From an uncultured delta proteobacterium (GTDB lineage Bacteria; Desulfobacterota; Desulfobaccia; Desulfobaccales; 0-14-0-80-60-11), in assembly GCA_963812015.1 (NCBI GenBank), contig CAWETI010000003.1:1344001-1408000 (forward strand): 64,000 nucleotides of DNA, written 5' to 3'. Shown piece after piece: positions 55,133 through 56,807 of the stretch; positions within the stretch are counted from its first letter, which is position 1, and every line of letters starts with the position of its first letter. The position numbers were made by a program, and so were the translations under genes. The notes under the pieces are model-generated. The model was not told the origin of the DNA, did no database searches, and saw only the letters and a list, made by a program, of their open reading frames with translations.

Positions 55133-55777
55133 CTATCGGGCCAACTCGAGGGAGGGCTGGGGCGGCACCGGAACTTCGCCTGCGGTTTCCGGGGAAGCCG
55201 CAGTTGCCGGAGCGATGCGGCGCAAGACCTCGAGCTCCTTGAGAATTCGGGCCAGGCTGGCCTCGGGGTTTTCGGCGCCGGTCGTGACTTCGATATCCGG
55301 CCGCGCCGGGGTCTCAAAGACGTCGTCAATTCCGGTAAAATGAAGAATTTCACCGGCCAGAGCCTTCCGATATAGGCCTTTGGGATCGCGGCTGATGCAG
55401 ACTTCCAGGGGGCAGTTGAGGTAGACTTCGACATATTCGCCGATGATGGCCCGGACTTCTTCCCGAATCGCGTGGTAGGGACAGATCGCCGCGACGATGG
55501 TCACTACCTGTTGTCGGACCAGGGTTTGCGCCATGGTGGCAATGCGCCGCAGGTTGGTGGCCCGGTCTCCGGGGGTAAAGCCCAACCCCTTGCTCAGGGT
55601 GGTCCGCACGATATCACCGTCCAGAATCTCAACCTTGAGGCCCCGTTCCGTGAGCGCTTCGGCCAGCAGGCGGGCCAAGGTGGTTTTCCCCGAGGCGCTC
55701 AATCCCAGCAACCAGACGCAAAACGCCCCATTCCCGGCAGCCGATTGTTCAGAAACATCCCCCGATGAATTGTGCAA
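55133..55777 (-). CDS. cysC: Adenylyl-sulfate kinase
   Basis: WLLGLSASGKTT, LDGD-VR, LGFT--DR--N, RDPKGLY and FTGIDD motifs; TTG start chosen from the RBS position. Confidence 0.92.
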   Translation of the reverse strand: MHNSSGDVSEQSAAGNGAFCVWLLGLSASGKTTLARLLAEALTERGLKVEILDGDIVRTTLSKGLGFTPGDRATNLRRIATMAQTLVRQQVVTIVAAICPYHAIREEVRAIIGEYVEVYLNCPLEVCISRDPKGLYRKALAGEILHFTGIDDVFETPARPDIEVTTGAENPEASLARILKELEVLRRIAPATAASPETAGEVPVPPQPSLELAR

Positions 55778-56036
55778 ATCTCCGGTTCCTCGCTCTTTCT
55801 GAAAGTTTCTTTGCCAGCCTCTGGCGCTCTCTATTATAACCGGGGGTGGTGCGAGAAGAAAGCCTTTAAGAGCTCCCCTGCTCTTCGGGGCAGGGAGCAG
55901 GCGAGGCCAGCCGGCGTTACGGCCCGGAAGTTTGGCGAATTTACCGGCCCTCCCGGGAACCAGCTTTAACTTGGCAAGTTCGCGTGATTCGGAACAAAAA
56001 ATTGAATCTCGGGAGTAATGCACGATATTTTAGTAA

Positions 56037-56049
56037 AATCAATAAGTTA
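56037..56049 (+). promoter_or_regulatory. IHF binding site
   Basis: AATCAATAAGTTA is a perfect match to WATCAANNNNTTR, about 115 bp upstream of a sigma54 promoter. Confidence 0.7.
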
Positions 56050-56161
56050 AAAAAATCTGACTTCCAGCCGGGGGTGCCGTGGTATAAATAATTGAACCGG
56101 GGTGAAATCGCTAAAACGCTAACCTATTGGAAAATCAACTATAAAAAGGTATTGGCTTATG

Positions 56162-56177
56162 TGGCACGCTTGCTGCA
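56162..56177 (+). promoter_or_regulatory. Sigma54 (-24/-12) promoter
   Basis: TGGCACGCTTGCTGCA has GG and GC at the exact spacing, with one mismatch to consensus. Confidence 0.8.
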
Positions 56178-56188
56178 TGTATATATAA

Positions 56189-56303
56189 ACGTATATGGAC
56201 CCTATTAAGGTACCCACATCCCCCCCTTAATCAAAGTTCATATACCATTTTCTCCTTTCACCGACTGGCCGGATTCCTCCCCCATCCGGCCAGTTACTTT
56301 TTT
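56189..56303 (+). ncRNA. Candidate sigma54-dependent small RNA with C-rich loops
   Basis: Two stem-loops plus a U tract directly after the promoter; no credible ORF on this strand. Confidence 0.7.
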
Positions 56304-56369: not shown

Positions 56370-56732
56370 TTACGGCGCCGGCGATTCTGCCTGGAGGGCC
56401 AAAACCTTCTCGCAACACTCCTCATCGCTGATGCGGCCGGCAAAAAACTCCTGCAGGGTGGTCAGGAAGGGGTTGGACGCGAAGAACTCCTGAAACCCCA
56501 CCCGGTCACCCAGGTCGGGGAACTGCAAGGGGACTTTGAAGTGGGTCGCCATTTCCCGGAACATCTCCAACTGCTGGAACTCCGCCTGGCGCATCTGGGC
56601 TTCAATCTGAAAGAGCAGCTTGCGCAGCTTTAGCAAGTAGTCTTGCCGTTCCTGGTGTTCCCGGTTCTTGTGCCGCAGAAAGTTCACGTGCTGCTGCCGC
56701 ACCAGGGTGGCGTAAGGGATAATTTTGCTCAT
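56370..56732 (-). CDS. Hypothetical coiled-coil protein
   Basis: AGGAG RBS; 120 aa; GC3-rich codon usage. Confidence 0.8.
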   Translation of the reverse strand: MSKIIPYATLVRQQHVNFLRHKNREHQERQDYLLKLRKLLFQIEAQMRQAEFQQLEMFREMATHFKVPLQFPDLGDRVGFQEFFASNPFLTTLQEFFAGRISDEECCEKVLALQAESPAP

Positions 56733-56807
56733 GGCCCGCACTTCTCCTGGGGAAAATGTATCATCTCACCTTGCGGATTCAAGCGAAAAAGGGTAATTTT
56801 TTAGTTT

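Follow-up and report, generated by a model that had tools for sequence, protein, structure and literature searches.

What does the non-coding stretch between cysC and a convergent gene do? The question arises near position 56188 of the window (the whole 64,000-nucleotide stretch of DNA that was analysed), where an original prediction had placed a trans-acting small RNA with exposed C-rich tracts under a sigma-54 promoter. Judged from sequence comparisons, this is quite probably a sigma-54-dependent antisense RNA, controlled by one two-component system and predicted to pair with the leader of a porin gene independently of Hfq and to block its translation.

Anatomy and control signals of the RNA locus

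The RNA (56188..56303, plus strand, ~115 nt from its predicted start) scores 129.5 bits with our model R1 and occurs in 47 of 50 genomes of the same order. Stem-loop 1 (56191..56245, plus) carries a C-rich 14-nt loop (56211-56224), whose predicted partner is the porin Shine-Dalgarno box. It is followed by a CU-rich, single-stranded seed (56242..56259, plus), which reaches the end of the linker at 56259 and is common to the long and short forms of the RNA, and by an intrinsic terminator (56264..56303, plus) with an 11-bp hairpin at 56264-56294, a C-rich loop, and a U tract to 56303. The original prediction had located stem, C-rich loop, linker, terminator hairpin, and U tract correctly. The predicted fold of a 118-nt stretch consists of two stem-loops at -36.4 kcal/mol (z -6.83), a stability that was equalled in 0 of 200 shuffles. 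In the short copies of the RNA, stem-loop 1 is reduced or missing.

Two protein genes flank the element. On one side, cysC (adenylylsulfate kinase, PF01583, E 9e-55; 55133..55744, minus strand) is the divergent neighbour; upstream neighbours vary, so it is not a conserved partner. On the other side, a convergent 123-aa gene (56370..56741, minus strand), for which neither Pfam nor NCBIfam gave a match, marks the main RNA locus: in both families of the order (Desulfobaccales) the RNA precedes this gene and hisI-hisG, and the neighbours of the other copies are unrelated. A small minus-strand ORF behind a Shine-Dalgarno-like antisense sequence was discarded, as it has 5 codons and its frame is disrupted by indels in relatives.

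The sigma-54 -24/-12 promoter (56162..56177, plus) and its predicted +1 at 56188 were found where the original prediction had put them. The promoter is recognised, at fixed spacing, in 88 of 90 copies (of the other two, one is truncated by its contig and one differs in its -24 box), which points to a sigma-54-dependent transcription unit. An IHF site claimed at 56037..56049 (plus) is also present and matches the consensus WATCAAnnnnTTR exactly.

Several signals had been overlooked. A 16-bp palindrome (56081..56098), 64 nt before the promoter, is the putative upstream activator sequence and the top match genome-wide; a weak second site (55991..56008) resembles it and falls under our 15-bit cut, so that the IHF consensus site stands between the two. 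A further IHF-like site probably lies on the minus strand between enhancer and promoter (56120..56132). When the genome was scanned at the 15-bit cut with an enhancer matrix trained on these RNA copies, 17 matches were obtained, of which the best four are the four RNA copies of the host genome and the only ones with a sigma-54 promoter. Matches 5 and 6 were rejected as lying within coding regions.

The arrangement is retained among relatives. The palindrome stands 63-100 nt upstream in 76 of 88 copies (of the rest, 10 have their best site further up and 2 have a weak one), and the distances to the promoter cluster at 63-66, 72-77, 84-91, and 97-100 nt, in steps of ~11 nt that fit the expectation for a looped enhancer. 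Many relatives have a second activator site ~75-90 nt upstream of the first. IHF-like sites with at most 2 mismatches are about twofold enriched on either side of the enhancer, being found between enhancer and promoter in 56 of 76 copies (32.6 expected) and upstream of the enhancer in 59 of 76 (30.6 expected from shuffles).

Copies, relatives, and possible transcripts

The host genome has four RNA copies, three long and one short, three of which are additional to the one first described. By blastn, the element was found in 34/36 genomes of the same family and 13/14 other genomes of the order; full copies also occur in records named Desulfobaccales and Desulfobacca, and 10 more distant genomes gave a single 28-nt match only. 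The copies stand beside many different neighbours; the element is therefore more than the terminator of the convergent gene, the sceptical reading that had accompanied the original prediction. Copy 3 is followed by mucR-like and csrA genes (L084:5149-5974, L085:5401-5673), and a cold-shock gene diverges from copy 2; the csrA and cold-shock neighbours are not conserved among relatives. A mucR gene also flanks RNA copies in genomes G001, G014, and G015.

As had been anticipated, promoter, loops, linker, and terminator are kept in relatives while the spacers vary. Covariation of the stems turned out as anticipated for one stem and less so for the other. Over 62 aligned long copies, the share of paired cells is 91.9%, and slid controls reach 43% at most. 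In the terminator stem, 8 of 12 pairs are altered on both sides and 95% of cells are paired, whereas such changes affect 4/10 pairs in the outer and 1/7 in the inner part of stem 1; RNAalifold, run on the aligned copies, predicted the terminator alone and missed stem-loop 1. Given these few two-sided changes and the RNAalifold result, stem 1 is less well supported than the terminator.

In keeping with the claim of novelty, Rfam returned nothing near a gathering score for the window stretch, the best whole-model match being LhrC (RF00616; 22.9 bits vs. 110, E 1.2), and Rfam 15 gave 0 matches at nine further loci, short and distant forms included. In the open literature we found no description of this RNA, which may yet be mentioned in closed-access papers, bioRxiv supplements or unpublished work such as sRNA catalogues of D. 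vulgaris, and the available portions of PMC11124144 and PMC5686591 mention no such RNA. Hfq (PF17209) is absent from all 51 order genomes and from the 5 others examined.

Distant forms largely escape model R1, which matched 1 of 145 genomes beyond the order. Palindrome and promoter occur together in 104 of 401 genomes of the phylum (Desulfobacterota), and 42 loci were inspected (22 returned and 20 picked for family spread). A CU tract and terminator follow enhancer matches that have a full promoter in 24 of 29 cases, against 0 of 15 where the full promoter is lacking. In family f18, the promoter and seed are found in 10/12 genomes, each with a single short RNA and the same palindrome, mostly as two sites (9/10). 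What unites the short RNAs is their signals and CU seed, not the sequence as a whole; they represent one regulon type, not one alignable family. Family f31 has enhancer matches in 8/12 genomes, with no kinase ortholog in the 4 tested and no full promoter at the one enhancer match inspected.

Is the RNA transcribed? Out of 24 sequencing runs, with a share below 0.1 in every one, four from four studies were used, and metatranscriptome contigs from all four cover 56191-56303. The flanks of this interval are uncovered, but they differ between strains. One contig enters the promoter, another continues beyond the terminator, and in one run the convergent gene is covered as well. As the contigs give neither start nor strand, and DNA may be present, they are a weak hint of transcription.

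The porin leader as predicted target

The reading of the element as a trans-acting regulator gained from the discovery of a complementary leader that is itself conserved. The leader at C2:1390328, before gene G000:C2:1390374-1391852, is complementary to seed and loop 1, with the two sites correctly ordered. The product (492 aa, with a signal peptide) has no Pfam match and groups with DcaP-like porins by features (0.97-0.99) and by predicted structure. The seed is complementary at 16 of 17 nt to the leader box at -47..-30, and the leader is the only one in the genome with three AAGG[AG]G[AG] boxes, two of which are too distant from the start codon to serve as a ribosome site. In cofolding, it ranks 1st of 3236 called genes (-20.7 vs. 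a mean of -5.3, SD 3.2 kcal/mol), in a window of -65..+15 that was chosen after the candidate had been seen; by cruder scores the porin is 5th, by the seed 4th, and by loop 1 outside the top 30 shown. A search for a two-box pattern in 61 genomes led to RNA copies, porin leaders, and 3 stray places.

Porin homologs were found in 41 of 50 genomes of the order. The leader comparison used 40 of 46 rows, after removal of 5 that lack the boxes (paralogs or divergent homologs) and 1 that is truncated. The three boxes are present in 38, 40, and 40 of the 40 leaders, with conservation of 0.86-0.93 against 0.59-0.68 for the spacers. The pairing of the real leader was equalled by no more than 3 of 200 shuffles in 31 of 36 genomes. 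As would be expected of a MicF-like RNA, the predicted pairing over the porin translation start region is conserved. Within the order there is no compensatory gain: the RNAs of genus g15 score -15.6 with their own porin leader vs. -17.0 with f1 leaders, and 5/7 g15 genomes are weak against shuffles. The palindrome exceeds 15 bits at 1 of 46 Desulfobaccales porin promoters.

Two further observations concern the search for G-rich targets. Two small beta-barrel genes in tandem (G000:C3:640695 and 641560) have poly-G ribosome sites, and the first, a possible second target, matches loop 1 over 13 nt. Such scans are confounded by an intergenic hairpin repeat, dispersed in many copies through G000 (e.g., C2:1351765, C3:71811, and C3:542166), whose core resembles CTCCCCCTTGATGGGGGAGGG.

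Family f42, which appears to be Desulfovibrio-type by its regulator end and NF033939 porins, adds a second line of evidence. The promoter-seed pattern is found in 13/61 of its genomes, and the palindrome lies upstream of DESULF_POR1 porin genes in 12 of the 14 genomes with recovered porin leaders (those of G473, G452, G492, and G467 were not recovered). Across 11 genera, seed and porin pair at -24.5 for cognate vs. -21.0 for non-cognate combinations (permutation p ~1e-5); across the 7 genera whose porins were obtained purely by family search, the values are -23.4 vs. -19.7 (exact p 6/5040). Both p values overstate the significance, because the genomes are related. G495 was excluded from these tests, having a promoter-seed match without terminator. 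The cognate RNA is the best for just 5 of 11 targets, so the covariation is real but partial. One f42 locus (G483:C161:6103-7406; L608, L620-L625) holds six promoter-RNA units in tandem, of which four are spaced at 227 nt.

In f42, f18, and f72, the seed complement is the ribosome site itself. It belongs to a porin-like gene in 3 of 5 f18 genomes (of the others, one has a match at a phosphoglycerate-mutase-like gene and one has no match) and in 2 of 5 f72 genomes, the remaining three being without a porin match. It is important to bear in mind that the porins of these lineages come from different families, so what they have in common is the logic, not the protein.

Candidate regulator, rival readings, and known systems

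Which protein would activate the RNA? Among 19 enhancer-binding proteins compared, only C3:387029-388399 has a reciprocal best hit in each of the four test genomes; for the enhancer-binding gene close to copy 4 (C2:1296551) this was so in 1/4, and it was rejected. The regulator (G000:C3:387029-388399) has REC, AAA, and HTH domains and is encoded by the last gene of an operon of pgi, a histidine kinase, and itself. In 17 genomes, belonging to 9 families (G088, G177, G124, ten inspected loci, and 4 of 11 regulator ends from 20 further regions), the ortholog of this regulator is followed immediately by the RNA cassette, while regulator and RNA are unlinked in Desulfobaccales, f18, and f42. A kinase ortholog is present in 42/151 genomes, largely of families that have cassettes. 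Orthology and linkage would therefore assign the activator role to C3:387029-388399. In its sigma-54 contact loop, the regulator here (L422:7030-8400) reads GAFTHA instead of the usual GAFTGA; the G088 ortholog reads GSFTGA.

The enhancer motif is missing beside the RNA in genomes G124, G358, G186, and G198; for G124, G358 (L334, L335), and G186 (L481), a short RNA with sigma-54 promoter, seed, and terminator has no palindrome match. In G124 and G186 this RNA adjoins the 3' side of the regulator. The palindrome in G124, G358, and G186 may have diverged together with the helix-turn-helix of the regulator.

The regulator is likely the ortholog of Desulfovibrio DVU3220. The order pgi, kinase, and a REC-AAA-HTH regulator of ~459 aa is found here, and in D. 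vulgaris, according to the accessible portions of the sources, DVU3222 is glucose-6-phosphate isomerase (PMC10920352) and DVU3221 is the cognate kinase of the 459-aa DVU3220 (PMC3333781). Moreover, in a comparison confined to that end, the C-termini of the f42 orthologs are the residues encoded by the DVU3220 reverse primer. A matching DNA-binding domain is printed under DVU3305 in the available part of PMC4641369 supplement 2; DVU3305 was rejected, as its listed sites differ from the palindrome, and we infer that the label is shifted and that the sequence fits the pgi-linked regulator (DVU3220). In the portion of PMC3333781 at hand, DVU3220 is one of two response regulators conserved across all Desulfovibrio examined, and its standing as a probable nitrogen regulator rests on one gel shift, DAP-chip having failed; the portion of PMC4641369 supplement 3 at hand lists no binding site for it. 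For DVU3220, the present analysis predicts a motif for binding, an RNA as output, and a target, each of which could be tested in a strain amenable to genetics. If true, this would give a testable job to a long-puzzling, widely conserved regulator of sulfate-reducing bacteria, and would be a clear case of Hfq-free porin riboregulation in Gram-negative anaerobes.

We infer the following mechanism. The two-component regulator (C3:387029-388399) would occupy the enhancer and reach the promoter by IHF-assisted looping, and sigma-54 RNA polymerase would transcribe the RNA. In the cell, the seed would pair first with box -47..-30 of the porin gene (G000:C2:1390374-1391852); stem-loop 1 would then unzip and loop 1 would cover the Shine-Dalgarno box, blocking porin translation. 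In Desulfovibrio-type genomes, the same regulator would probably bind the porin promoter as well, closing a feed-forward loop. As to the signal, envelope or permeability stress would be our guess, made by analogy. We also lean, narrowly, toward a wider reading, in which an ancient, Desulfobacterota-wide circuit would let the pgi-linked DVU3221/DVU3220 system set outer-membrane permeability through a sigma-54, Hfq-independent RNA directed against the lineage's major porin, with seed and ribosome site co-evolving and, in Desulfovibrionaceae, the porin promoter bound too. The RNA of the window would then be the most elaborate form, with three CU tracts facing a three-box leader.

Many strong ribosome sites, those of porins included, can pair with an anti-Shine-Dalgarno seed. 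The RNA might accordingly be a broad anti-Shine-Dalgarno regulator of many targets, with the porin merely the most visible by its strong, conserved ribosome site. Energies of -15 to -18 kcal/mol are indeed reached by many leaders, 19 leaders contain a 9-nt stretch perfectly complementary to the seed, another beta-barrel gene has a 13-nt loop 1 match at its ribosome site, and a redundant set of three CU tracts, like that of LhrC, would fit an RNA with many targets. We nevertheless regard this as rather unlikely, given that three boxes and ordered pairing with seed and loop 1 are found in the porin leader only, and that the two-box search led, 3 stray places aside, back to RNA copies and porin leaders. 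Could the RNA be a decoy for a C/U-binding protein, with the G-rich porin boxes kept for a protein such as CsrA? Decoy RNAs typically come in several copies with repeated single-stranded motifs, csrA and the cold-shock gene lie near copies 3 and 2, and the leader boxes contain GGA; but the 16/17-nt complementarity exceeds a GGA core, the seed varies in step with the porin ribosome site from one f42 genus to another, and neither neighbour is conserved, all of which makes a decoy very unlikely.

It is highly improbable that the RNA pairs with the porin leader yet activates or stabilises it, by opening a hairpin around box -47..-30. In f1 leaders that box can indeed pair with a CU stretch just downstream; the Shine-Dalgarno box, however, is covered in the cofold, and the complement in f42, f18, and f72 is the ribosome site itself. 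Barely credible, in our view, is an element that merely ends the convergent gene's transcript and has its promoter by chance, or one that is not expressed. The metatranscriptome support, being contigs without start or strand from raw reads, would allow it, but the U tract is on the RNA strand, some copies have no convergent gene, promoter and enhancer are kept in 76 of 88 copies, and as many as six units stand in tandem.

By analogy, the preferred antisense circuit would be built like LhrC, follow the logic of MicF under OmpR, and be wired like Qrr under LuxO. MicF and MicC, with OmpR, and other enterobacterial porin-repressing sRNAs need Hfq and sigma-70 or sigma-E. The likeness to MicF/OmpR lies in an antisense RNA predicted to cover a porin ribosome site, with the f42 regulator apparently acting on both RNA and porin promoter; the difference lies in the lack of Hfq, the sigma-54 promoter with an enhancer-binding regulator, and unrelated sequence and porin families. 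Qrr1-5 of Vibrio are several sigma-54 RNA copies that form the main output of the NtrC-type LuxO, one often being linked to the regulator gene; they require Hfq, and their targets are quorum regulators. The proposed wiring is alike, with multiple sigma-54 RNA copies under one NtrC-type regulator, but our regulator reaches 377 of 800 bits, far below the LuxO cut-off.

LhrC1-5 of Listeria monocytogenes are, in the accessible part of PMC4132741, multi-copy RNAs of 111-114 nt with two stem-loops and three CU-rich sites (loop, single strand, and terminator loop), controlled by LisRK, with an envelope-protein target and no need for Hfq. Our RNA is like them in length, in its several copies, two stem-loops, and three CU-rich sites, and in its lack of Hfq, and it would share with them control by one two-component system and an envelope target. 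It differs in its low LhrC bit score, phylum, and predicted porin target, and in having a sigma-54 promoter with enhancer and a candidate NtrC-type regulator instead of LisRK; there is no evidence of common descent. The alphaproteobacterial ar14/cuckoo RNA (RF02344) also presents a C-rich anti-Shine-Dalgarno loop on a hairpin, but the match is to a 31-nt hairpin only (model positions 47-77, 18.2 of 58.8 bits), and tandem equal hairpins are lacking here. The sigma-54 ncRNAs of D. vulgaris under DVU0679 (Dv_sRNA2), DVU0653, DVU1419, and DVU2359 (PMC3333781, PMC4641369, as far as these are available) share the phylum, a sigma-54 promoter, and an RNA gene near or under an enhancer-binding protein. 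In a comparison of binding sites, the published ones of DVU0679, DVU0653, and DVU1419 are unlike the palindrome, and a common activator site was rejected for these three. For DVU2359 the available portions hold no binding site, and for none of these ncRNAs do they give a target or structure.

Other loci returned by the searches are of a different kind. Five identical promoter-like stretches without enhancer or terminator (L340, at G336:C8:38307, and on four more G336 contigs) are probably a repeated mobile element. At L431 (G060) and L467 (G092), the palindrome and a full sigma-54 promoter stand before protein genes, not an RNA.
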